Source: an uncultured Chloroflexia bacterium (GTDB lineage: Bacteria; Chloroflexota; Anaerolineae; JAAYZQ01). From it: a stretch of DNA of 64,000 nucleotides. This document shows positions 15,135 to 29,190 of this stretch, piece after piece. The position numbers and the translations under genes are program-made. The notes under the pieces are model-generated. The model saw only the letters and a program-made list of their open reading frames with translations. It was not told the origin of the DNA and made no database searches. Where the stretch lies: positions 64,001 to 128,000 of the forward strand of contig CAVOXA010000001.1 in the NCBI GenBank assembly GCA_963700285.1. Reading direction: 5' to 3'. The number at the start of each line of letters is the position of its first letter. Within the stretch, counting starts at the first letter, position 1.

Positions 15135-16118
15135 ATGGCGAAAAAGGGACGGGTTTTCAGCGGGGCACGACCGACCGGCCGCCAGCACCTGGGCAACTAT
15201 TTGGGCGCGATCCGCAACTATGTGGCGCTCCAGGATGAGTACGAGTGCGTCTATTGCGTGGTCGATCTCCACGCCTTGACGACCCTGGAGGACACGGACA
15301 AGCTGACAGAGTGGACGCGCGAGATGACCCTCGACTGGCTGGCCGCGGGGATGCGTCCCGAGGAAACGATCATCTTTGTGCAGTCCCACGTGCCGCAGGT
15401 CACCGAGCTGCACACGATCTTGTCGATGGTCACGCCGCTGGGCTGGCTGACGCGTCTGCCGACCTTCAAGGAGAAGGTCCGCCAGAATCCCGACAACGTC
15501 AACTATGGCCTGGTAGGCTATCCGGTGCTCATGGCTGCCGACATTGCCCTCTACAAAGCGGACACGGTGCCGGTGGGCGTGGACCAGGCGCCCCACCTGG
15601 AGTTCACCCGCGAGATTGTCCGCCGCTTCAACCACCACTTTGGCGAGGTGCTGGTCGAGCCGCAGGCCAAGCACACCGAGTTCACCAAGGTGCTGGGCCT
15701 CGACGGCAAGGCCAAGATGAGCAAGTCGCTGGACAACCACATCGAGATCGCCGCCACGCCCGGACGAGATCTGGCAGCGGGTGCGGATGATGGTCACCGA
15801 CCCAGCGCGCCGCTACCGGAACGACCCCGGCCATCCGGAGGTCTGCAACGTATTCAGCCTCCACAGCTTCTTCTCGCGCCGACGAGGTCGGCCAGATCGA
15901 GGCGGATTGCCGCTCGGCAGCGATCGGCTGTGTGGACTGCAAGAAGATGTTCGCCCAGAACCTGAGCGACTATTTTGCCCCCTTCCGTGAGCGACGCGCC
16001 CAGTTGGCAGCGGATCCCGATTACGTGTGGGACGTGCTGGCCGACGGCGCCCGCCGGGCCGGCGTCATTGCCGACGAGGTAATCGGCAGAGGTCAAGGAG
16101 GCGGTGGGACTGCCATAG
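15135..16118 (+). CDS. trpS: Tryptophan--tRNA ligase (frameshifts near 15765, 15880, 16085; probably sequence errors)
   Basis: [13 protein letters not shown] (HIGH), [28 protein letters not shown]. Confidence 0.93.
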
Positions 16119-16153
16119 CGGCCAACGCAGATCAGGGCGGAACGCATGCGAGC

Positions 16154-17962
16154 ATGGACAGCGACATCCGTAACTTTTGTATCATCGCCCATATCGATCA
16201 TGGCAAGAGCACCCTGGCCGACCGTTTGCTGGAGCGTACCGGTACGGTCAGCGAGCGGGAGATGATGGACCAGGTGCTGGATACCATGGATCTGGAGCGC
16301 GAAAAGGGCGTGACCATCAAGGCCTCGGCCGTGCGCATGGCCTACACGGCAGCCGATGGCCAGGAGTACGAGCTGAACCTGATCGACACTCCCGGGCACG
16401 TCGACTTTACCTACGAGGTGAGCCGCGCCCTGGTCGCCTGCGAGGGCGCGCTGCTGGTCGTCGATGCCAGCCAGGGGGTGCAGGCCCAGACCCTGGCCAA
16501 TCTGTACCTGGCCCTCGATGCCGGTCTGACCATCGTGCCCGTCATCAACAAGATCGACCTCGTCTCGGCCCAGCCAGAGGAGGTGGCTCAGGAGGTGGAG
16601 GACCTGCTGGCCATCCCCGCCGACGGACGCGATCTATACCTCGGCCAAAGAGGGCACCGGCGCCGAAGCCGTGCTGCAGGCTGTGGTGGACGCATTCCCG
16701 CCACCCGCGGGGCACGCCGGACCAGCCGCTGCGGGCCCTGATCTTTGATTCCCACTATGATTCCTACAAGGGTGTGATCGCCTACGTCCGCGTCGTGGAC
16801 GGCGCAGCTGCGTCGCGACGACGCTCTGCTGCTGATGTCAAACCTGCAGCCGGTGCTGACCCATCGAGGTCGGCGTCTTTCGCCCGGGCATGGAACCATG
16901 CGAGAGCCTGAATGCTGGCGAGGTGGGCTACGTGGCCACCGGCCTCAAGACGCTGCAGGATTGCCGCGTGGGCGACACCTTCACCCTCAGAGTCGAGCCC
17001 GGCCGCCGAGCCGCTGGCCGGCTACCGTCCGGCCAAGCCGATGGTCTTTGCCGGGCTCTATCCGGCCGAAGGCGAAGACTATACCCTGCTGCGCGACGCC
17101 CTGGCCAAGCTGCAGCTCAACGATGCCTCGCTCATCTACGAGCCCGAAACTTCTCAGGCTCTGGGCTTTGGCTTTCGCTGCGGTTTCCTGGGTCTCTTTC
17201 ACATGGACATCATCCAGGAACGGCTGGAGCGGGAGTATGATCTGGACATTGTCTTTACCTCGCCCAGCGTCGAGTATCAGGTGCTCAAGACCAATGGCGA
17301 ACGTGCTGGAAATAGACAACCCGGCCAAGCTGCCCCCTGAGAACGAGATCGAGCAGATCGAAGAACCCTGGATGCAGATCCAGATCTTTACCCCGGCCGA
17401 GTATCATCGGCCCGGTGATGGACCTGGTGATCAAGCGGCGGGGCGAGATGAAAAAGATGGAGTACCTCGATGCCAAGCGGGTGCTGCTGACCTACGAGAT
17501 CCCCCTGACCGAGATCCTGGTGGACTTTTACGACCAGCTCAAGAGCCGGACCAAGGGCTATGCCTCGCTGGACTATGCGCCCGCCGGCTACCGTCCCGGC
17601 GACATGGTCAAGCTGGAGGTGCTGGTGGGCGGTACGCCGGTGGATGCCCTGTCGATCATCGTCCATCGCGACCAGGCCTTTCACAAGGGGCAGCGTCTGG
17701 TGAGCAAGATGAAAGCAGGTCATCCCCCGCCAGATGTTCGACGTGGCCATCCAGGCGGCGGTTGGCAAGCCGGGTGATCAGCCGGGCCAATGTCAAGGCG
17801 CTGCGCAAGGACGTGCTGTCCAAGTGCTACGGCGGCGACGTGACGCGAAAGCGCAAACTGTTGGAAAAGCAGAAAAAGGGCAAAAAGCGCATGAAAAAGA
17901 TCGGCCACGTCGAGATCCCCCAGGAAGCCTTTATGACCGTGCTGCGGCTGGAAGAGGAATAG
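16154..17962 (+). CDS. lepA: Elongation factor 4 (LepA), split by multiple frameshifts (probably sequence errors)
   Basis: [76 protein letters not shown] in successive frames. Confidence 0.93.
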
Positions 17963-18044
17963 GCATCGGTCTACTGATACCCCCAAAAACAAAGGTCTTC
18001 CAATGGACTTGGAAGACCTCGAGTACCCCGGCGGAACAAACGAA

Positions 18045-19415
18045 CTAGGCTTGAGTTTCGGCTTCACCGGCGGCTGGTGAAGCGTGATGCTGGGCGTAGA
18101 GGGGGCAGCCACCACCGCAAAGGACCTGGTCGGGGCAGTCGTGGCACTTTTCCATCATGAAATCCCGGTTCCGTAGATAGCGGGCCAGTTCGTGGTCCCA
18201 GATGCTGTCCCAAGGGTCGTTGAGAAGGTTGCCCAGCGCCGAAAAATAGCTCTGGCAGGGGATTACGTCGCCGTTGGGTTCTACGCACATGTTGTACCTG
18301 GCTGCGGTGCAACCCTTGATGCCCAGCTCCATGCCGATGGGATCAAACTCGCAGTACTGGGTCGGCGTGTACCAGATGAGGCGCATGTGGTGTTCCTGCG
18401 CTGCCTCTTTGACCCGCTCCAGAATGGGCTCCAGCTCGTCCTCGCGCAGGCCGCTGCCTACGGCCACCGCCGAGCCCGAATAGATGAGGCTGTTGCAGCC
18501 AAAGGTAGGCACGCCCAGGGACGCGGCAAAGGCGATCGTTTCCACGATGCCGTCGACGTTCTCCGTGGTCATGGTCGTGTTGGTCATCATATAGACGTCG
18601 GCGTCTACCACCGTTTTGATGCCCGCTACCGTTTCTTCCCAGGCGCCCTCTACACCGACCATCCGGTCGTGGATGGCCGGGTCGTGGCTCTCCAGGGTGA
18701 TCTGGATGTGGTCGAGCCCCGCCACGAGGAGCTGGTCCAGGTAGTCCCGATCCCCCAACGCTCGCCCGTGGGTCTGCAAGCCCGTGATTAAGCCCACGTC
18801 CTGGGCGTACTGGGCGATCTCTACCAGGTCCGGCCGCAGGGTTGCTTCGCCGCCGGTGAAGGTGAGGTGAGGGATGCCCAGTTCCCAGCAGCGATCGATG
18901 ACGCGTTTCCACTGCTTGGTGGACATCTCGGGAAAATCAGCGGGCCGGCCCACGTAGCAGTGTGGGCAATCGTTCTGGCAGCGATAGGTCAGCGCCAGGT
19001 CCATGCGGTAAGGGGCCGAGATCTCGGCACTCATCGGTTCGATGCGATGCACATCCAGGTACGTGACCGGACAGACCTCCTCGTCCGCCTGGGCCAGGGC
19101 CCAGATGGTCTCCTCCAGTTCCTCATAGTCGGCGCGGGCCACCTGCTCGCTCACCTTGTAGCGCTTGGCCAGCTCGCGCGCCGCCTCCTGGGCCGATTTC
19201 CCCCGCAGGATCATGCTGGCGTGCTCCGTCGCCGTCTGATTGAGATGCAGCATCCTCGCCGCGTTGATGAGCAGCACGCCATGCCCGTCCTTCTCCACGC
19301 GCAGGTGCATGCGGTACTGCCGGGGTGAATCGGGCGGGGTGTGGTATTCGTAGAAGCCTGTGGTCAGTGGGTGAGGCGGCTCGAAATACTGCTTAACACG
19401 TTCCAGAATTGTCAT
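18045..19415 (-). CDS. Radical SAM/SPASM protein with N-terminal PqqD-like (RRE) domain
   Basis: LHLNQTA...AARELAKRYKVSEQVARADY (PqqD-like), CQNDCPHC, TGGEA, SPASM CTAA...VIPC...CHDC...CGGGCP. Confidence 0.88.
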   Translation of the reverse strand: MTILERVKQYFEPPHPLTTGFYEYHTPPDSPRQYRMHLRVEKDGHGVLLINAARMLHLNQTATEHASMILRGKSAQEAARELAKRYKVSEQVARADYEELEETIWALAQADEEVCPVTYLDVHRIEPMSAEISAPYRMDLALTYRCQNDCPHCYVGRPADFPEMSTKQWKRVIDRCWELGIPHLTFTGGEATLRPDLVEIAQYAQDVGLITGLQTHGRALGDRDYLDQLLVAGLDHIQITLESHDPAIHDRMVGVEGAWEETVAGIKTVVDADVYMMTNTTMTTENVDGIVETIAFAASLGVPTFGCNSLIYSGSAVAVGSGLREDELEPILERVKEAAQEHHMRLIWYTPTQYCEFDPIGMELGIKGCTAARYNMCVEPNGDVIPCQSYFSALGNLLNDPWDSIWDHELARYLRNRDFMMEKCHDCPDQVLCGGGCPLYAQHHASPAAGEAETQA

Positions 19416-19417
19416 GA

Positions 19418-21079
19418 TTATCTGCCTCCTCCGGCGCAGGCGCAGGCGCAACCGGCGCAGGCACAGGCGCAGGCGCAACTGTATCCCCCGCTGCGGCCAG
19501 ACCCGCTGGAGCTGGCCCTTTTGGGTGGTGGGTTGGTCTTGTTGGTCACCCCCCTGGTAAAACCTTCGATGCTGCTGACGACGGAGCTGGACGCGTTCTC
19601 GATGCCGCCGACTACGGTGTTGGCAAAGTCCGCTCCGGGCAGCGTGGGCAGCGTCACCGGGGTACCGCCGCCCGAGGGTGACGGTATTGGCGTCGATGAG
19701 GTTCTGGGAGCGCTGTGCGCCACCCAGGGCCGGTAGCCCCACCACCAGTTGGGGAGCATCACCGGGCGGTCGTGAAAGACGCGGCGCGTGCGGCCTTCCC
19801 AATTGTCGTCGAGCATCGTCCACTCCAGGCCCTCGCCCCAGCGGTCGCCCAGAACCTCCGGGGTATCGGCGGCCTCGACCTGCTTCCAGGCCCGCGCGGC
19901 AATGTCCTGGTAGTATTCGGTGGTCTCTTTGCGGCTAAAGCCGGCCAGTTTCTTGTTCACGTCGCCGATGAGGTCGATGACCATCTCCCGCAACTTGCTT
20001 TCATTTAGCATGCCATCGTCCCCTACCGCCTCTATAAAGCGGCGTTCATAGTACCACAGCTTGCTATCCTCCGGCAGTGGGTCCACGACCTCAACCTTGA
20101 GCGGTTTCTCGGACTCGACGGTGACAATGCCTTTCTTGACCAGGCCAAACAGGATCATGGTCATGATCTTGTTCAGGGGCGCTTCCAGCAGAACTGCCGC
20201 TTCGACGGCGGTCAGACCGCGCTTGATGCCGCTTCCCTCCACCGCAACCGCGGGTGGCAGATACTCCATCCTGCGCCGTTTCTTGGACCGTCCGTTGAAG
20301 AAACCGATTAGCAGCCAGGCGATGGGCAGCATGACAATAAAGATGCCGGGGCTGCTGCACAGGCCACCCAGGTTCAGGTTGAAGGCCGGTGGTGTCTGTA
20401 CCACGCCCTCGGCCAGGTACTGTCGGGGGAAGGAGGCGCCATAGACGTACTTTTTGTCGCCCCTGGCTTGCTCGTTGACCCAGGTATAGACGACCCTGTC
20501 ATCCTGGAAAGCAGCGCTGGTGAACTCGGTTCCGTGATAGCGGGGCTCCTCGGCGGTGACCCCCGGGGGCAGGTGGAGGTTGACCTCCAGACGGGTGGGG
20601 CCGTGTACAAACTGGCTGTCGAACCAGGTGGGTGCGAACTCGAAGCTGGCATAGGCGTCATCGTCGCTGTCTGGATAGACGAGATCCCGTACCGCGGCCT
20701 CCAGGTGCAGGGTGCCCGTCTGCCCCGGCTGGATGGTTTGGGGGCCCAGCTCCACAGCCACGCCCGGACTGACGTAGGGCGAGTTGCTGATGTCGGTCAG
20801 GGGCACGCCGTTGATGGAGGCCCGAATGTTAGAGATGCGGTAGCTGTCGTTGGGCAGGCCCACGTCGACGACGTCGATGGGGTGGGAGCCGGGGTCTGGA
20901 GCAAAGGTCAGGTCGTAGGCGAGGTATATGGTGCCGTCCTCCTCAATGTACACGTCAACCACGTTTTCTTGCAGGTTAAAGCGATAGTCCTGGGCCAGGC
21001 TCACCGGCGCCAGCAGCATGAAGGCCACGACGGCGAGCACGACCAGTGCCTGTATCCGCTTTGTTTTCTTGTTGAACAT
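19418..21079 (-). CDS. Exported/membrane protein (DUF2207-like architecture) with C-terminal CACACACAGCACACAGGGR tail
   Basis: Signal peptide (…SLA/QD), extracellular domain, TM helix, 'GIKRGLTAVEAAVLL', Ser/Gly linker, 7-Cys tail. Confidence 0.8.
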   Translation of the reverse strand: MFNKKTKRIQALVVLAVVAFMLLAPVSLAQDYRFNLQENVVDVYIEEDGTIYLAYDLTFAPDPGSHPIDVVDVGLPNDSYRISNIRASINGVPLTDISNSPYVSPGVAVELGPQTIQPGQTGTLHLEAAVRDLVYPDSDDDAYASFEFAPTWFDSQFVHGPTRLEVNLHLPPGVTAEEPRYHGTEFTSAAFQDDRVVYTWVNEQARGDKKYVYGASFPRQYLAEGVVQTPPAFNLNLGGLCSSPGIFIVMLPIAWLLIGFFNGRSKKRRRMEYLPPAVAVEGSGIKRGLTAVEAAVLLEAPLNKIMTMILFGLVKKGIVTVESEKPLKVEVVDPLPEDSKLWYYERRFIEAVGDDGMLNESKLREMVIDLIGDVNKKLAGFSRKETTEYYQDIAARAWKQVEAADTPEVLGDRWGEGLEWTMLDDNWEGRTRRVFHDRPVMLPNWWWGYRPWVAHSAPRTSSTPIPSPSGGGTPVTLPTLPGADFANTVVGGIENASSSVVSSIEGFTRGVTNKTNPPPKRASSSGSGRSGGYSCACACACAGCACACAGGGR

Positions 21080-21245
21080 CTCTGTTCCCTCCTCGAGGAC
21101 CTCCGTCAGTCCGGTCTTGCGTCCGGCCGTAGCCTGCTGCCTTGTCTTCCCCTGCTCGGGTCTGGTCCGCGCCCCGACGTTTTCTGCCCCATGCAACCGG
21201 TCACGGACCGGTTGTGAGCAGGCGGGAAGTATGGACCTGCCGCCC

Positions 21246-21611
21246 TCACCATTTGGGTTCTTCGACAATCTGGTAGGCGGCGTCGCAGTAGGGGCAGTTG
21301 ACCATGACCGCTCCCTGGACCACGCTGATGGCCTGTTTGTCGAGCTGGGCGCCGCAGCTTTCGCACTTCATGGCTTCCAGCTCCACGTCACCGGTCAGAT
21401 CGATCTCCTGGCGGATGGTAACCTTTTGCTCGGGTTTGGGTTCGCGCAGCCGGATGGCGACGATGATGCCCAGGCCAATGGCCACCAGCAGCCCGCCCAC
21501 CAGCAGCCGGCCGCCGGGACTGGCCGTGCCCGAGCCAAAAGCAGCCCACAGAAACAGCACGCCAAAAAAGATAAGGATCCCCGCCACGATGTAGCCAATG
21601 ATCTTGCCCAT
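21246..21611 (-). CDS. Small 2-TM protein with C-terminal Zn ribbon
   Basis: Two hydrophobic helices; CESC...CPYC. Confidence 0.75.
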   Translation of the reverse strand: MGKIIGYIVAGILIFFGVLFLWAAFGSGTASPGGRLLVGGLLVAIGLGIIVAIRLREPKPEQKVTIRQEIDLTGDVELEAMKCESCGAQLDKQAISVVQGAVMVNCPYCDAAYQIVEEPKW

Positions 21612-21643
21612 GCTCGTCTTCCCTCCCTACCACTTGCTATACG

Positions 21644-22912
21644 CTATCTCCAGGAAAAGGTTCGGGTCTCGCTGGACGGGCTGTGATCCTCGCCCAGCCA
21701 CGTCCCGTCATCGGCCACGCCGGTCTGTCGCATGATGGACACCTGCCAGCGGAAATGCTGCGGTTCCGTCCCCGCTCTGTACACCTCGGCCGGCACCCGC
21801 CACGAAGTAGCCTGGGTCCAGACGAGAGGTGGTTGCTCCGCCCTGGGATCCATGCTTCGCAAGCGGACGACGTAGAATTCGTCGGCGTCGAGGATGCCGA
21901 CCGAAGCCCAGTTGAGCATGACGACGGTCTCGGCGCCCTCAAAGGCTGCGCCGTCGGGGGGAGCCAGCAGGTAGGGGGCCGGTCGGGGTGGGCCGGGTGT
22001 TGGCGTCAGGGTTGGCGCCGGGGTGAGTGTGGGCGTTGGCGTGGCGGTGCCCACCGGGATCTTTAGTTCCTGGCCCACGCGCAGGTTGTTGCTATCCAGG
22101 CCGCTGGCCTCCTTGATCTCGTCCACCTTCACATTGTACTTGGCCGACAGGCTGAACAGGGTGTCGCCCGGCTGCACCTCGTGGATCTCGTAGGCCATGG
22201 TCGTGGTAAAGTCTGGCGGCTGGGCGATGATGATCTTGGTGCCGACGCGCAGGCTCGTGGCGTCGCTGATGTTGTTGATGGTCATGAGCGTCTCTACCGT
22301 GGTACCATACTTTTTGGCGATGGCGCTCAGCGTGTCACCGGTTTTTACCGCGTACTCAAAGGGCGTGGGCGAAGGCGTGGGGGTCACCGTTGGCGTAGAC
22401 GTGTTGGCCACCGGCAGGGGGATGATCAGCTCGTCGCCGATGCTGATGATCGACTGCGAATTGAGGCCATTGGCCGCCAGCACCTTGGCGATGGTCGTGC
22501 CATACTGTTTGGCGATGCTGGACACGGTCTCGCCCGACTCCACGGTGTGCCGGGTCTGGTTGGGCGGCAGGGTGATGGTCGGCGGCGGCGTGGGCGAATG
22601 CAGTGGCGTAGCGGAAGGCGCCACGACATAGGTCGCCGCGGGTGGCAGCGTGGCCTTTGTAGTGGCCGTTGCCGTGGGTACTGTCGTACTGGCCACCATG
22701 GCCAGTGGTTCATCGCGATCCCAGGGCTTCCACAGCCACAGGGCGGCGATGGCCGCGGCCAGCAGCAGGGGCAGCAGCAGGTCCCCTTGCGGCAGCCGCA
22801 AGTGCCTCTTTTTTTCTTCCTTCAATTGGGCCCCACACATCAGGCAGGTCTCGGCCCGCTGTGCCACAGGCGTCCCGCACTCGGGGCACTGCCTTTGGGG
22901 ACTCGGTTCCAT
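21644..22912 (-). CDS. Membrane-anchored 3x LysM protein with N-terminal Zn ribbon
   Basis: CPEC..CLMC, TM helix, PT-rich linkers, HTVESGETV / YAVKTGDTL / HEVQPGDTL LysM starts. Confidence 0.88.
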   Translation of the reverse strand: MEPSPQRQCPECGTPVAQRAETCLMCGAQLKEEKKRHLRLPQGDLLLPLLLAAAIAALWLWKPWDRDEPLAMVASTTVPTATATTKATLPPAATYVVAPSATPLHSPTPPPTITLPPNQTRHTVESGETVSSIAKQYGTTIAKVLAANGLNSQSIISIGDELIIPLPVANTSTPTVTPTPSPTPFEYAVKTGDTLSAIAKKYGTTVETLMTINNISDATSLRVGTKIIIAQPPDFTTTMAYEIHEVQPGDTLFSLSAKYNVKVDEIKEASGLDSNNLRVGQELKIPVGTATPTPTLTPAPTLTPTPGPPRPAPYLLAPPDGAAFEGAETVVMLNWASVGILDADEFYVVRLRSMDPRAEQPPLVWTQATSWRVPAEVYRAGTEPQHFRWQVSIMRQTGVADDGTWLGEDHSPSSETRTFSWR

Positions 22913-23208: not shown

Positions 23209-23369
23209 GGTTCTTGCCTCTGGGTATTGCCGGGTTACCTGGCAAAAGTACGACAGCGCGCTTTGAGTACGCCTGCCACGAACCCAGCTTGCAGCCCCCC
23301 GATTATATCAGACTGATCCTCTTTTGCCAAGCAGAACCGAGGGCACAACCAGGGCAGCAGCCATTCCCT

Positions 23370-24066: not shown

Positions 24067-25925
24067 TTACTGCTCCAGCGCTTCTTTGGCCCGTTTGATC
24101 TGCTGGCCGCGCTCGTGCCTGTCCAGAATGTGCTTGCGGATGCGCAAGCTCTCTGGGGTCACTTCCAGCAGCTCGTCGTCACTCAGATACTCCATGCACC
24201 GGTCCAGGCTCATCTCCTGGGGCGTGGTTAGCCGGATCTCGATGTCCCGAATCGGGTTGCGCATGTTGGTCAGATGCTTGGTCTTGCAGACGTTGATGTC
24301 CAGATCGCCCGGCCGCTGGTGCTCGCCAATCACCATCCCCTGGTAGACCTCTGCCCCCGGACCGATGAACAGGCTGCCTCGCTCCTCGGCGTTTTTCAAC
24401 CCAAAGGTGGTGGCAACACCGGTTTCCCAGGCAACCAAAGAGCCGCGCGACCGGGAGCTGATCTGCCCGGCCAGGGGGCCATACCGGTAAAAGACGGTAC
24501 TCATCAGGCCCATGCCGCGGGTGGCGGTCAGGAACTGATAGCGAAAGCCCAACAAGCCCCGGATGGGCACGTGATAGGTGATCAGGACGCTGCCGTCGGA
24601 GGCATCGGTCATGTTGATCATCTCACCACGCCGCTTGCCCAGCATCTCCACCACCGCACCCACCGTGTCGGGCGGTGTCTGGATATGGACCTCTTCATAC
24701 GGTTCCAGGGTCTGGCCGTCCTGGTCTTGCTGCAAAATCACCCTGGGACGGGACACCTGAAACTCGTAGCCTTCGCGGCGCATGGTCTCGATCAGAATCG
24801 CCAGGTGCAGCTCGCCCCGGCCCGAGACGACAAACGTATCGGCCTGGTTCGTTTCTTCCACTTGCAGGGCGACATTGTGCCTGAGTTCCTCATAGAGGCG
24901 CTCGCGGAGCTTGCGCGAGGTGCCCCAGCGGCCTTCCTTGCCGGTCAAGGGGCGACGTGTTCACCCCAAAGGTCATCTGCACCGTAGGTTTTTCCACCTG
25001 GATGACCGGCAGGGCAACGGGGTGTTCCGGGTCGGCCAGCGTTTCCCCAATGGCGATTTCCTCCAGTCCGGCAATGGCCACAATGTCGCCCGCCTCGGCA
25101 GCCGGGACCTCCACTCGTCTCAGCCCCTCGTGCACGTAAAGGTAGCGGGCGCTTTCCAAAAGCTGCTCGCCATTCCGCGTGAGGCGAGTAATGGACTGCC
25201 CGGCCGTAATGCGGCCGGCAAAAACCCGGCCGATGGCAGTCAGGCCACGATAGTTATCATAGTCCAGCGTGGTCACCAGGATCTGAAGCGGGGCATCCAC
25301 GTCCACGGTTGGGCAGGGGATTTCTCGCAAGATGGTGTCAAAAAGTGGCTTCAGGTCCGGCCCGAGTTCGGGCGTCAGGCCTGCCTGGCCTGTGGTGGCA
25401 ACCGTGTAGACCACGGCGAAAGTCAGCCTGTGCGTCGGTGGCTCCCAACTCGATAAACAGATCAAAGGTCTCGTTGAGCACCCGATCGAGATCGGCGTTT
25501 CTGCGGTCCAGCTTGTTGATGACCACGACGGCGCGATGGCCCATTTCCAGCGCCTTCCGGAGTACGAAACGGGTTTGGGGCATGGGGCCTTCGGCTGCGT
25601 CCACCAGCAGCAGCACGCCGTCCACCATGTTGAGAACCCGCTCCACCTCGCCGCCAAAATCGGCATGCCCCGGGGTGTCCACGATGTTGATCTTGACCTG
25701 TTGGTCTCTCTCTGCATCGTAGATGCTGATGGCCGTGTTTTTGGCCAGGATGGTGATGCCACGCTCCCGTTCCAGATCGTTGGAATCCAGCACCCGCTCG
25801 GCTACCTGCTGGTTGCTGCGGAAGACGTGTGCCTGCTTGAGCAGGCTATCCACCAGCGTTGTTTTGCCATGATCTACGTGCGCAATGATGGCAATATTGC
25901 GCAGATCGGTTCGTTCGACGAGCAT
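24067..25925 (-). CDS. typA: Translational GTPase TypA/BipA (frameshifts near 25420 and 24950, probably errors)
   Basis: [53 protein letters not shown]. Confidence 0.93.
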
Positions 25926-26023: not shown

Positions 26024-26282
26024 TCATCAGATCCAGTGCAAAGACACACCAGTATAGTGCTTATGTTCCGATAGGTCAACTTTTTCCTCCTTGATGGTAG
26101 TGCGATTGCATCTGAGTTGGCGCCGGGGTGTTGGACTGTGGTCCAGCACGAGGAAGGGTGTGGCGCCGGGGCGCTGAAGCGCCCACTACGAACCGATGTT
26201 GCGGTCTACTGATCATGGAGGTGATGGAGGCTGAGGTGCGGGAGGAGAAGAAGGTCAGAGCTTGTCACAGGTCTCTCCAGGC

Positions 26283-26331
26283 TTGACGCGTTCACGTCCG
26301 ACTCTTACCATGAATCATAGAACAGGTGTTC
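26283..26331 (+). promoter_or_regulatory. Sigma70-type promoter with adjacent LexA-type box
   Basis: TTGACG-17 nt-TACCAT (26283-26311); GAAC-AGGT-GTTC at 26320-26331. Confidence 0.65.
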
Positions 26332-26408
26332 GTTTTGTTGTTCAGAAGAGGCAATCAGGCCCTGGGTGTACCAGCGGACTGCTGGGCACAGTTCGCGTGA
26401 GCAGGATC

Positions 26409-27098
26409 ATGAGTGGTACGCATCGATCAGGAAGACGGTGCGGCGCCGTGCGGGCCGATGGCAAGCGCTGCCGCCAGAAGGCGATCAATGGCCTGGAGCA
26501 GCCGCTGTGCCCGGTCCACGCTTTTGAGCACAAGGGCAATACCGACGGGAGCCCCCGGCATGGCTTCTACAGCCGGGGCGAGCCCACGGGCTTTGAGTAT
26601 CGGCGGCGCGTGGGGCCCGACGATTTCGTGCGGGGCGGGGGCCTGGCGTCTGTCAAAGGTACTCCACTGGAGATCCGGGAGCGGGAGATGGATGTGCATC
26701 CCCTGGAGCCGGAGCGGACGGACATCGACGTGGCCATCGCCGCCCTGGTGCACAAGATGGAGATCCTGGACGCGCTGATCTTTCGGGCTGAAGAGCACGG
26801 TCTGGACATTGTCACGCTGCTCGGCCTGTACCTGGCTGCTACGACGCGGTTGGGGCATTTGATCCGTGAGCGCCACGAGATGTCCAACAGGGAGGGCGAT
26901 GATCTGCTGGGGTTGCTGGAGCGGGCCAATGAGCTGCTTGAGCGTGGGGAAGGGGACTCGGGATCTTTTGGGGAATTGCACCGCCGTGAACAGGCGGTGC
27001 TGGACCGGTTCTGGTGTGAGGCTGGCCAGTGCGGGTCGTGCATGGCTTTCGGCGGGAATCACGGTGGGGGTGGAAGCGCGCTGAAGCGCGCACTATGA
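26409..27098 (+). CDS. Hypothetical phage-type protein with C-x9-C…CxxH (HGGxSTG-like) motif
   Basis: RCGAVRADGKRCRQKA…LCPVH…RHGFYS; 3' end runs into repeats. Confidence 0.6.
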   Translation: MSGTHRSGRRCGAVRADGKRCRQKAINGLEQPLCPVHAFEHKGNTDGSPRHGFYSRGEPTGFEYRRRVGPDDFVRGGGLASVKGTPLEIREREMDVHPLEPERTDIDVAIAALVHKMEILDALIFRAEEHGLDIVTLLGLYLAATTRLGHLIRERHEMSNREGDDLLGLLERANELLERGEGDSGSFGELHRREQAVLDRFWCEAGQCGSCMAFGGNHGGGGSALKRAL

Positions 27099-27290
27099 AC
27101 GGATCTGGCTATTGCTGGGCTGATTTCTTGGATTGCAAGAACCGGCGTGGCTGCGTAGTGCTGGGCGCGGCTGCGGTCGGGAGACCTTGCCGAACGGAAG
27201 TTGGGGATTGCTTCGCATCGGCGAAAGGCGCCTCGGCTCGCAATGACGGGGCAGGCATTCAACTCACCATGAAAGGAAAGGAAGCGGAAA

Positions 27291-28106
27291 ATGGCAACTT
27301 ATCGTCAGGTACACGTGCATATGTGGAAGGACCCGTGGTTTCTGGATCTGAGGCCGCCGTGGAAGCTGCTCTTTGTTTACTTGTTGAGCAACGAGCGGGC
27401 GCACCTGTCGGGGGTGTACGAGCTGCCCTTCCGGGCTATGCTTTTCGAGTCGGGGCTGAGGGCGAAGCAGGTGAGGGAAGCGCTGGCCTACTTTGAGGCA
27501 AGCGGGAAGGTGTGGTACGACGAGGAGAAGGGCCAGGTGTTTGTGCGCAACCTGATGCGCCACAACGCGCCAAACGCGATGAGCGCCAGGATCCTGGCCC
27601 ACCTGCGCAAGCACCGGGTATCGGCCGGGCGCGTGCAGTACTGGGCCATGTGGGAGGAGGTGTATCCCAAAGTGGCGGGAAGGTTATCGATGCCGTGCAT
27701 ACAGGAACAGGACAAAGAACAGGAGCAGCAGCAGGAGCAGGCCGGGCGCGGGGCGCCCGGTGGCAGCGGCGGCGGCAGGGGGATGGATGCGGTGGTCAAG
27801 ACGCTGGAACTGGCCGGGCAGGAGGCGGTGAATGCCCTGGACAGGCAGCGGATCAAGGAGATGATGGGGGCCGCGGAGGCGCACCGTTTGTCGCTGGACA
27901 GGGGCGTGGCGGGTGCCGGCCGCGCCGGGAGCGAGTGGGTGTGCGAGGCGGTGCGGGTGGCCAACGGGGCGCGGAAACGAGGGTCGCCGGTGAGCCTGAA
28001 TTTCGTCGAGTCGGTGCTGCGGCGCTGGATGGAGGAGGGATTCCGGGCACGGTGGGGTGGAGGGGAAGCAGTCCAGTTCGTGGATGTGGAGTACTGGGTG
28101 GACTGA
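27291..28106 (+). CDS. Phage-like replication initiator/replisome organizer with DnaD-like C-terminus
   Basis: MATYRQVHVHMWKDPWF…LFVYLLSN…SGVYELP…ESGL N-terminus; LNFVESVLRRWMEEG DnaD-like motif. Confidence 0.72.
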   Translation: MATYRQVHVHMWKDPWFLDLRPPWKLLFVYLLSNERAHLSGVYELPFRAMLFESGLRAKQVREALAYFEASGKVWYDEEKGQVFVRNLMRHNAPNAMSARILAHLRKHRVSAGRVQYWAMWEEVYPKVAGRLSMPCIQEQDKEQEQQQEQAGRGAPGGSGGGRGMDAVVKTLELAGQEAVNALDRQRIKEMMGAAEAHRLSLDRGVAGAGRAGSEWVCEAVRVANGARKRGSPVSLNFVESVLRRWMEEGFRARWGGGEAVQFVDVEYWVD

Positions 28107-28313
28107 GGGAAAGGTTCATGTTGGAGGTTGAGGTTCTGAATGGAGACTCGACCGCCCGGCGCTAAAGACGCCGGGCTGAGCAGCGAAGCCCCTTTGGGGC
28201 TGGATTCTAGCCCGCGGGGTACTGCAGGTGAGCTAGCGGCTCGCGCGCAACGCAGTCGGGGGCCGTTCCCGATTCAAAGATCAGATTTGGCCATGGACTG
28301 GCCAGGGTGAGGC

Positions 28314-29190
28314 ATGAAACTAGGCACAGCCGCGGAGCAGTTTAAGGAGATCAAGCCGTGGACGCGGAGCGGGATGGCGGCCTTTCTGGAAATCTGCCAG
28401 GTGGAGGACACGGCGGACCTGGAGCCGGCGGATCTGGCCGGCTACCTGCCGCGCCTGGCGACGAAGGGGTATGCAGCCGGCACGCTGAAGACGTACCGGA
28501 CACAGGCTAACGCCTTTTTGGGGGTGGCTGGTGGACAGGGGCCTGGTACGGTTTGGCCCGGAGGCGCTGGCGGAGATCGTGGCCGAGCAGTACAGGGACG
28601 TTCCCATGCTGACCCGGGAAGATCCCGTGGTTCCGGAAGAGAAGGAGGTGCGGGACCTGGTGGAGGCGGCGCACGAGGTGGCGCCCAGTATCAGCCCCGA
28701 TACGGCCAGGGGCCGGCGGCAGCGGTTGACCTATCTGCGCAATATCGCCATCGTGGAGACGCTGCGGGCGACGGGGATCCGGCCCGGGGAGCTGGTCTCG
28801 CTGCGGCGCTGTGACCTGGATGAGGGCAGCCAATGCGCCACGGCGCCGGATGGCCGGCGGCTGCACTTTGACCTGGAAAGCTGGGGCGCTCTGGCACGGT
28901 ACCTGGCGGCACGGGGGGACGCGACCGACCATCCGCTGCTGGTATGGCAAGCGCCGGTTTTTGCCCGGCACGATGCCAAGAGCGCCGGCCAGGACCTGGC
29001 GCCGTTGAGCCCGGAACGCGTGGGAAGGATCCTGGCCGGATTGAGGAGGGGCAGCAGGCTGAGGCCCAGAGATCTGCGGGCGCGCTTTGGGCAGCGCCTG
29101 CTGGAGGCGACGAAGGATGAGCGGGGGACGGGCAGGCTGCTGGGGCTGAAGAACAAGGTGGCGGTGCGGCGGTACCGGCCGGATGAATGA
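28314..29190 (+). CDS. Tyrosine recombinase/integrase-like protein (frameshift near 28520; degenerate catalytic motifs)
   Basis: N-terminal core-binding region, ATGIRPGELVSL box I, PRDLRARF, LLGL, C-terminal Tyr. Confidence 0.7.

Follow-up and report, generated by a model that had tools for sequence, protein, structure and literature searches.

What does an enzyme with the domain architecture of a peptide maturase act on when its gene lies directly behind that of a large membrane protein? The question is raised by a four-gene run in a 64,000-nucleotide (nt) stretch of contig CAVOXA010000001.1 (assembly GCA_963700285.1, positions 64,001 to 128,000) from an uncultured Chloroflexia bacterium; this whole stretch is referred to as the window. 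The last gene of the run encodes a radical S-adenosylmethionine (SAM) enzyme, here called the rSAM, which combines a recognition element (RRE) for peptides made on ribosomes and modified after translation (RiPPs) with a SPASM domain. The preceding gene encodes a membrane protein that ends in alternating cysteine and alanine, the tail protein. On the genomic evidence we regard it as fairly probable that the rSAM modifies the tail cysteines on the intact, full-size membrane protein. The original prediction had described a run of four genes, a membrane protein of roughly 550 aa with a seven-cysteine alternating tail, a 2-nt gap before the rSAM start codon and a GGAGG ribosome-binding site (RBS) within the Gly codons of the tail. 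All of these features were recovered from the sequence. The run consists of four minus-strand open reading frames (ORFs), which are intact and match their relatives over the full length. The rSAM ATG begins 2 nt past the TAA of the tail gene, so that the two genes are likely to be translationally coupled at this locus. The features of the run are, in window coordinates:

22912-21644, minus strand: protein with a Zn ribbon, a transmembrane (TM) segment and three LysM domains (found by domain search), 422 aa
21611-21246, minus strand: protein with two TM segments (from hydropathy), a C-terminal CxxC...CxxC Zn ribbon and the end EEPKW, 121 aa
21079-19418, minus strand: tail protein with a signal peptide-like N terminus, a TM segment and the Cys-Ala tail, 553 aa
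20294..20362, minus strand: single predicted TM helix of the tail protein followed by RSKKRRR, about residues 240-262
19418..19477, minus strand: Cys-Ala tail CACACACAGCACACAGGGR and stop codon, residues 535-553, the predicted modified core
19425..19432, minus strand: Shine-Dalgarno-like GGAGGAGG in the Gly codons of the tail, ending 9 nt before the rSAM ATG
19415-18045, minus strand: RRE-radical SAM-SPASM enzyme (the rSAM), assigned by Pfam domains, 456 aa

The C-terminal end of the tail protein is YSCACACACAGCACACAGGGR, and seven of the eight cysteines of the 553-aa protein lie within the tail. In a six-frame scan of the 7.05-Mb genome no copy of the Cys-Ala motif was found other than the one ending this protein; nine further matches to the regular expression are different Cys-rich stretches. 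A word-indexed search returned 3242 relatives among 7997 scored candidates, of which 120, the query included, were listed. Among these listed matches, with identities of 63-100%, the last 19 residues are identical in 120/120 proteins, far more agreement than chance would produce, and the closest relatives are labelled Anaerolineae. Since these homologues are close and were partly chosen by their tails, GTDB was scanned with a 12-codon pattern only. The pattern scan gave at least 121 loci, 120 of them distinct, and the statements on GTDB loci that follow refer to the matches listed. In the shorter-motif scan all 120 distinct loci end in CACACAGCACACAGGGR-stop. The pattern leaves out the preceding CA and the following GGR-stop, and these residues are likewise invariant in 120/120 loci. 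Third codon positions vary freely, the choice of stop codon varies too, and the central Gly is preceded by differing numbers of CA units. The invariance of the residues together with the freedom of the synonymous sites indicates selection on the tail at the protein level. A DNA microsatellite or an RBS as the cause of the tail is thereby ruled out; only 52 of the 120 loci have GGAGG within their last six codons, so that it does not explain the invariant GGGR. No TGA codon was found in the 120 loci at the two tail Cys positions that the pattern leaves free; in the pattern the remaining five read TGY, which makes selenocysteine variants undetectable there.

The tail also stands out within its own protein. 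In an alignment of 62 loci-derived proteins sharing 27-70% identity, residues 537-553 are 100% conserved, and mean column conservation is 54% in the ectodomain and 61% in the cytoplasmic domain. Among the best 150 of 918 representatives obtained by clustering at 50%, 74 have the canonical tail and 57 have Cys-rich variants, two of which (P0271 and P0290) resemble frameshifted ends; the remaining 19 are tail-less and are mostly short fragments. Named bacterial carriers among the matches listed belong to Anaerolineae, Acidobacteriota, Aminicenantes, Planctomycetota, Zixibacteria, Coatesbacteria, Fermentibacterota and Clostridia, and three Asgard archaea represent the archaeal carriers. The absence of a separate short precursor, noted in the original prediction, is upheld: the motif occurs once in the genome, and no recurring cluster of at least 70 aa was recognised as a precursor, ORFs shorter than 70 aa having been listed for the window only.

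Linkage between tail protein and enzyme was assessed in 79 distinct GTDB loci with flanking DNA, 78 of which are accounted for by the tail-protein family; 75 of them extend at least 1 kb downstream. An intact rSAM, carrying the CxxxCxxC motif, lies directly downstream of the tail gene in 65 of the 75 loci, a cluster-less paralogue takes this place in 5 and neither is present in 5. In all ten exceptions the intact rSAM clade is encoded elsewhere in the locus or genome, and three of the four loci with less than 1 kb downstream also have the rSAM. An even sample of 301 Chloroflexota genomes (rSAM threshold E 1e-50) gave the same picture, with a tail-protein match in 26 genomes, an rSAM match in 27 and both in 26; the 27th genome with an rSAM match has only the cluster-less paralogue. 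All 24 clear full-length tail genes of this sample have an rSAM within 600 nt. The 25th tail gene, which is divergent, has the rSAM upstream in the same run (genome G233), and the 26th is a paralogue with a different tail, of the CHSA type described below (G300). Presence is patchy within genera (3/6 and 1/4 members, for example), the cassette genes being gained or lost together. The co-occurrence for which a search had been proposed is therefore near-perfect, and tail proteins that commonly lack the enzyme were not seen among the Chloroflexota genomes (26 of the 26 with a tail match also match the rSAM).

The assignment of the enzyme to the PqqD/RRE-SPASM type holds as well, as its PqqD, Radical_SAM and SPASM domains all score above the Pfam cut-offs. 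The RRE is recognised both by the PqqD Pfam match and by a profile match to the lasso-peptide RRE TfuB1. The cluster cysteines C146, C150 and C153 (CxxxCxxC) are invariant, and seven cysteines of the SPASM region (355, 369, 387, 424, 427, 433 and 437) are invariant in 58/58 aligned enzymes. By comparison with anSME and SuiB, we assume that four of these seven could fully ligate the first auxiliary cluster (AuxI), for which they are candidates. Many members have an extra Cys about 10 residues past the last SPASM Cys, which is absent from the window enzyme. In the enzyme downstream of the tail gene at locus L179 the last four SPASM Cys columns are Ala, which suggests that the second auxiliary cluster (AuxII) can be lost. 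The rSAM scores below every named NCBIfam cut-off shown. Its top scores are those of PqqE (142 of 381 bits), NirJ2 (130 bits) and AhbD (125 of 500 bits), with NirJ at 96 of 515 bits; no pyrroloquinoline quinone (PQQ) or haem operon genes were recognised among the conserved neighbours of the cassette. The hidden Markov models (HMMs) of named maturases also remain below cut-off, with 78.4 of 300 bits for SkfB, 68.9 of 850 for AlbA, 80.5 of 625 for StsB, 57.9 of 350 for SbtM (TIGR04082) and 57.7 of 500 for HxsC4. TIGR04115, which we take to be the CXXX-repeat maturase family, is absent from the best 25 of 69 families matching the rSAM and would score below 53 bits if present. The structure model of the rSAM has a predicted local distance difference test score (pLDDT) of 91, and the closest structures found with Foldseek are SkfB, SuiB, CteB and PqqE; the best structural matches, the group of SkfB, AlbA, StsB, CteB and SuiB, have template-modelling scores relative to the query (TMq) of 0.52-0.66.

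Of the indirect signs that point to the tail as substrate, the strongest comes from natural variants, in which the same scaffold carries a different tail and is accompanied by a matched enzyme. The first variant, the CVS tail (for example CACVCACVSCACACASGG), was found in 119 metagenome loci, 80 of them with flanks and 65 with 1 kb downstream. An rSAM of the clade that accompanies the Cys-Ala (CA) tail lies directly downstream in 64 of these 65 informative loci, and the Zn-ribbon gene lies beside the cassette in 53 of the 80. At L208, the one locus of the 65 without a downstream rSAM, a second homologue of the tail protein takes the place behind the tailed gene. An Atlas cluster near the window protein consists mostly of Bathyarchaeota, from which the CVS loci are likely to be of archaeal origin. 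The second variant has a paralogous body, 24% identical over the cytoplasmic half, and a (CHSA)n tail. Of 401 genomes of the class, 58 contain its motif, and the reversed control pattern gave 0 matches; the CHSA cassette was not found in the genome of the window. Thirty CHSA loci were fetched, of which 28 were informative; an RRE-rSAM-SPASM enzyme is encoded directly downstream in 19 and within 1.5 kb in one more. Further members of this cassette are a coiled-coil gene and a gene for a TM Zn-ribbon protein, and one CHSA paralogue passes the DUF2207 model with 25.5 against 24.4 bits. The CHSA cassette tails read (CHSA)n/(CVHDA) and end in CVSxF (L148:1950-6808, L149:983-5794 and L279-L319). At L148 and L317-L319 the cassette lies between a SelA-like gene and glycosyltransferase/kinase-like genes, as read from the sequence. 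Both the CA and the CHSA cassettes occur together in one genome (G015). In a tree of the rSAM proteins the CHSA enzymes (SH-aLRT 100) and the CA-type enzymes (91) form sister clades, with the CVS enzymes (99) nested in the latter; this was a quick search with 57 proteins and long outgroup branches. Haem attachment at the CxxxCH of the CHSA type was considered as a general explanation and rejected: the CA type has no His, and its tail is placed in the cytoplasm.

The core of the cassette is formed by the Zn-ribbon protein, the tail protein and the rSAM, together with a co-distributed SAM methyltransferase. The two-TM Zn-ribbon gene lies upstream in 62 of the 68 GTDB loci with enough DNA and is present in 26 of the 301 Chloroflexota genomes, 25 of them tail-gene carriers. 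A class I SAM methyltransferase is encoded in 41 of the 79 GTDB loci, three Asgard loci included, and in 25 of the 301 genomes, namely all 24 clear carriers and one genome of 350 contigs; in G233 it is adjacent but under the threshold. Its best models are the DVU_1556 family, BioC and UbiE, all below cut-off. The methyltransferase orthologue of the window's genome is unlinked and lies outside the window (C1 1183563-1184283); it is split over frames, possibly by an assembly indel. Downstream of the tail gene in many Anaerolineales loci lies the cluster-less rSAM paralogue (44 clean ORFs, for example L010:4123-5313), which has kept the RRE and lost the cluster cysteines, nests inside the Chloroflexota enzymes in a quick tree and was not found in the window's genome. 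A second cluster-less kind, with CxxxCxxC lost and the AuxII cysteines kept, was seen in G233 (L150:5314-6675). In four split loci (L062, L087, L157 and L158) an intact rSAM lies beside a tail-less short paralogue of the tail protein, and the tailed gene lies beside a cluster-less rSAM. The tail-less paralogue, whose gene comes immediately behind that of the intact rSAM, has no ectodomain and an end like ATYYG (L157:6669-7664 and L158:7262-8128).

Other neighbours were rejected as core members. Among 61 loci with 3.6 kb of upstream DNA, a neighbouring LysM gene is present in only 2, both of them close relatives, and the envelope role that the original prediction had derived from LysM is thus not borne out. 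A 114-aa PAS-like protein, read by eye, is encoded between the rSAM and the cluster-less paralogue and is sometimes duplicated (L013, L021, L078 and 16 further loci); it is confined to 19 of the 79 loci, of the Anaerolineales type only. No conserved peptidase or peptide exporter was recognised among the clusters found in at least three of the 79 loci (top 40, by eye) or among the CVS neighbours. No multinuclear non-haem iron-dependent oxidase (MNIO) was recognised by eye among the conserved neighbour clusters, without a scan with the DUF692 model; the adjacent enzyme is the rSAM. At the window locus the LysM gene is possibly co-transcribed with the cassette, about 390 nt upstream of which gene a promoter match was found, and a hairpin lies directly past the rSAM stop, between the rSAM and the convergent lepA:

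23302..23330, minus strand: sigma-70-like promoter match, 11/12, with extended TG (consensus match only)
17992..18020, minus strand: terminator-like hairpin, 12 pairs followed by a T run (consensus match only)

The flanking housekeeping genes trpS, lepA and typA are split over reading frames (window 15135-17962 and 24067-25925), which points to indel errors in the assembly. Further upstream of the cassette, at window 26262-29190, a replication-initiator-type-like ORF and split tyrosine recombinase-like ORFs were identified by eye, and the GC skew jumps at 26-30 kb, in the same region; this region is possibly an integrated element.

The tail protein itself has no match among Pfam and NCBIfam families at E 0.1 and none in PADLOC, and a sequence search of the PDB gave a single weak match (E 0.033). 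Hydropathy shows one TM segment at about residues 240-262, followed by RSKKRRR, and no strong further one. By the positive-inside rule, the half of a protein that follows such a basic stretch lies in the cytoplasm, and the C-terminal half is placed there accordingly. The cytoplasmic location of the tail that the original prediction had assumed is in this way borne out as a prediction, by hydropathy and by the structure model. In the AlphaFold2 model (pLDDT 83, predicted template-modelling score (pTM) 0.48) a long TM helix joins a beta-sandwich ectodomain to a helical domain in the cytoplasm; two amphipathic helices come next, and then a tail that is disordered. According to the model and fold search, the ectodomain (about residues 31-224) is ribophorin I/aminopeptidase-N-like; it matches yeast Ost1 with a Z score of 15.0 (root-mean-square deviation (rmsd) 2.9, 179 aligned residues) and human ribophorin I with 14.4, and also matches M1-aminopeptidase N domains. 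The cytoplasmic domain (about 288-498) is modelled as GOLPH3/Vps74-like, with a Z score of 7.7 for GOLPH3 (rmsd 4.1, 158 aligned) and 5.6 for Vps74, values that may arise by chance for helical folds; this comparison was made on the whole tail-protein model, for which Foldseek mainly reports the ectodomain. The amphipathic helices at 482-515 are followed by a Ser/Gly linker and by the Cys-Ala tail, whose pLDDT below 50 makes disorder likely when it stands alone. Some forms of the tail protein (P0144, P0145, P0151, P0155 and P0162) are 766-838 aa long and have their ectodomain duplicated. Among 85 family members weak matches to TIGR04222 were found in 13 (best E 9.7e-9; below the curated cut-off for the window protein), to DUF2207_C in three and to DUF2207 in one, and in the nearest Atlas clusters with a family DUF2207 is found in 20% and 88% of the members. 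From these weak matches and the Atlas neighbours, the tail protein is placed as a remote branch of the DUF2207/TIGR04222 superfamily, and it fits the trait of these proteins, which are membrane proteins whose C terminus is low-complexity, Ser/Gly-rich and includes cysteines.

We propose the following sequence of events. The RRE of the rSAM would dock on the tail protein, either at the conserved amphipathic helix and TNPxP before the linker or at the GOLPH3-like domain. The 5'-deoxyadenosyl radical would then attack the Cys-Ala tail, the cysteines would be oxidised, and the modified core would stay tethered to the full-size membrane protein, with no small peptide released. The methyltransferase would act second, for example on a freed thiol. 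The product may be a multivalent soft-metal-binding or signalling tail at the inner face of the membrane, which is the weakest step of the proposal. As to the chemistry, we tentatively favour conversion of every Ala-Cys pair into a thiooxazole-type unit by an oxidation like that of SbtM, itself an uncertain choice. Thioether cross-links on the tail are ranked slightly below it and are rather unlikely, and other radical chemistry such as epimerisation is less likely still. The thiooxazoles are placed slightly above the thioethers because of the Ala-Cys alternation, the presence of Cys in both tail halves and a methyltransferase able to cap a thiol. The Cys in both halves and the four candidate AuxI cysteines presumably make local X-Cys chemistry a better fit than the hairpin of a sactipeptide.

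Several observations weigh against modification of the tail or against parts of the proposed route. Two of the enzymes behind the top NCBIfam scores of the rSAM (PqqE, NirJ2 and AhbD) belong to haem biosynthesis, all of these scores being far below cut-off. For the thiooxazoles in particular, the SbtM model reaches only the 57.9 of 350 bits given above, and the nearest solved structure, SkfB, is that of a thioether enzyme. In the split loci, the intact rSAM beside the tail-less paralogue also fits a complex with another substrate. Eight of the 28 informative CHSA loci have no rSAM within 1.5 kb; in three of these it lies 2-5 kb away, and in the other five no rSAM was found in the fetched stretch, which for two of them lies on a short contig. 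One of ten genomes checked genome-wide, a metagenome-assembled genome of 2.3 Mb (L016, whose contig ends 89 nt past the stop of the tail gene), has no rSAM match. In the CVS loci no methyltransferase gene turned up within 4 kb, so the methylation step would not be universal. Finally, the genomes are related and not independent, and the counts overstate their independence.

The alternative that survives best, although we consider it rather improbable, is that the tail is not modified at all. The tail would then be a ready-made Cys-x-Cys ligand for metal or Fe-S, comparable to metallothionein or phytochelatin, and the rSAM, the methyltransferase and the Zn-ribbon protein would form a membrane complex with a different substrate, which might be a small molecule, for instance, or a lipid or the Zn-ribbon protein. 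Soft metals are known to be bound by CxC arrays, and the haem-biosynthesis enzymes among the top HMM scores, together with the resemblance of the methyltransferase to small-molecule enzymes (below cut-off throughout), would agree with such a substrate. This explanation is kept alive by the tail-less paralogue that accompanies the intact enzyme in the four split loci, and the retention of the cluster-less paralogue in many Anaerolineales suggests a structural complex. It does not account for the RRE domain and the RiPP-maturase fold of the enzyme, nor for the way in which the tail type tracks the enzyme clade across three tail classes; moreover, the strict Ala and the fixed GGGR-stop in 120/120 loci appear tighter than metal-binding tails usually need.

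In a second and more improbable alternative, the tail protein is a fused precursor: the modified tail would be cut off in the Ser/Gly linker and a small RiPP released, with the body serving as carrier or leader. RRE-SPASM enzymes normally yield released peptides, and a core-like tail behind a variable low-complexity linker would suit this route. However, no conserved peptidase or exporter was recognised by eye among the recurring neighbours, the body is conserved and well folded in the model (pLDDT 83), unlike a leader, and the tail is predicted to be cytoplasmic.

An envelope defence system matured by radical SAM enzymes, with the cluster-less paralogue as the second rSAM, is very unlikely. 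The anti-phage system HXS comprises a pair of rSAM proteins and an effector protein that bears repeats (PMC13128918); here the tail gene is often followed by two rSAM paralogues, and the patchy presence within genera would also agree with defence. On the other side, the tail, Zn-ribbon and LysM proteins have no match in PADLOC and the rSAM matches only its generic viperin models. The HXS repeats are periplasmic and basic, whereas the Cys-Ala tail is predicted to be cytoplasmic and is neutral, and the cassette neighbours appear by eye to be housekeeping-like, with no defence islands. Inherited synteny without a functional link is strongly disfavoured, since for all the relatedness of most sampled carriers as Anaerolineae the same order recurs in the seven other bacterial groups named above and in Asgard archaea, the genes are gained and lost jointly within genera, and unlinked copies still co-occur.

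Modification of the tethered tail thus remains the preferred reading. If true, it would extend radical-SAM modification, at several sites and across domains of life, to a full-size membrane protein, most known cases being small secreted peptides. It would also give a first concrete handle on the purpose of the low-complexity tails of DUF2207/TIGR04222 proteins. The system is tractable: the enzyme is single and soluble, the invariant core spans 19 residues, tail variants with matching enzymes occur in nature, and at least one carrier, such as Ornatilinea apprima (locus L053), is in culture. It is conceivable, if on balance doubtful, that DUF2207/TIGR04222-type proteins provide a common scaffold on which RiPP-like tails are carried and never set free. 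In some bacteria MNIO enzymes would write on it; in Anaerolineae, candidate phyla, and Bathyarchaeia-like and Asgard archaea a dedicated rSAM clade would write a poly(Ala-Cys) array of the thiooxazole type, subsequently methylated, at the cytoplasmic membrane face, with tail and enzyme clade co-diversifying (CA, CVS and CHSA).

No published description of the cassette was found, subscription papers and supplements having been outside the search. Beyond the general domains of the rSAM, no family model of Pfam, NCBIfam or PADLOC covers the tail protein or the rSAM at the cut-off of a named family. The cassette resembles a RiPP maturase system acting on a tethered core and is a member of no named system tested. 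Protein-borne Cys tails with adjacent modifying enzymes have already been proposed or shown elsewhere. The closest parallel is a bioinformatic proposal that TIGR04222 proteins with Cys tails are substrates of MNIO (DUF692) enzymes, which are close to those of the bufferins, carriers of Cu-binding thiooxazoles (PMC12452194). Both systems have a homologous scaffold, a Ser/Gly-rich C terminus with Cys, an adjacent enzyme of a Cys-modifying type and a whole protein as the proposed substrate. The differences lie in the enzyme, here an RRE-rSAM-SPASM protein; in the tail, an invariant Ala-Cys alternation here and a variable low-complexity stretch there; and in topology, with one TM segment after the signal peptide and a predicted cytoplasmic tail here and predicted periplasmic tails behind several TM segments there. 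Co-occurrence is also tighter here, about a third of the TIGR04222 genomes being without MNIO there (PMC12452194).

SbtM (TIGR04082) makes a thiooxazole at Gly-Cys; the product is still reactive to iodoacetamide, and the thio(seleno)oxazole signature is -4 Da per Cys with absorbance near 304 nm (PMC9204691). Like the proposed system, it employs a radical SAM/SPASM enzyme on a dipeptide of a small residue and Cys in a ribosomal product, and an SbtM-type route might amount to MNIO-like chemistry without oxygen. Its substrate is a peptide with a GGUG selenocysteine motif, whereas no GGCG/GGUG core is present here. The sactipeptide and ranthipeptide maturases SkfB, AlbA, StsB and CteB, and likewise SuiB, share the RRE, the CxxxCxxC radical SAM domain, the SPASM domain and a Cys-rich putative core. 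In sactipeptides and ranthipeptides an S-to-carbon thioether cross-link gives -2 Da each. Unlike these systems, the cassette has no short precursor that could be found and no conserved peptidase or exporter that was seen, misses all family cut-offs, has Cys in both halves of the core and has four candidate AuxI cysteines. In HXS (HxsABCD), HxsB/C mature a protein effector (PMC13128918), so that a repeat modification dependent on radical SAM takes place on a full protein there, and two rSAM-like genes are often present in both systems. The HXS effector is periplasmic, with His-x-Ser repeats and a peptidoglycan-binding domain; here no His-x-Ser repeat is present, the second rSAM lacks all cluster cysteines and no PADLOC match was obtained. 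In the CXXX-repeat system (TIGR04114-TIGR04119) and in QhpD/QhpC, Cys-repeat regions of longer proteins are proposed or shown targets of radical SAM enzymes. No match to models of the TIGR04114/TIGR04117 type was found in the window tail protein, in the 85-member alignment (E 0.1) or in four CHSA proteins (E 0.01). With a Cys in every fourth place, the (CHSA)n paralogue resembles the CXXX repeats; the tail described here differs from them in its Cys at every second position and in its DUF2207-like body.

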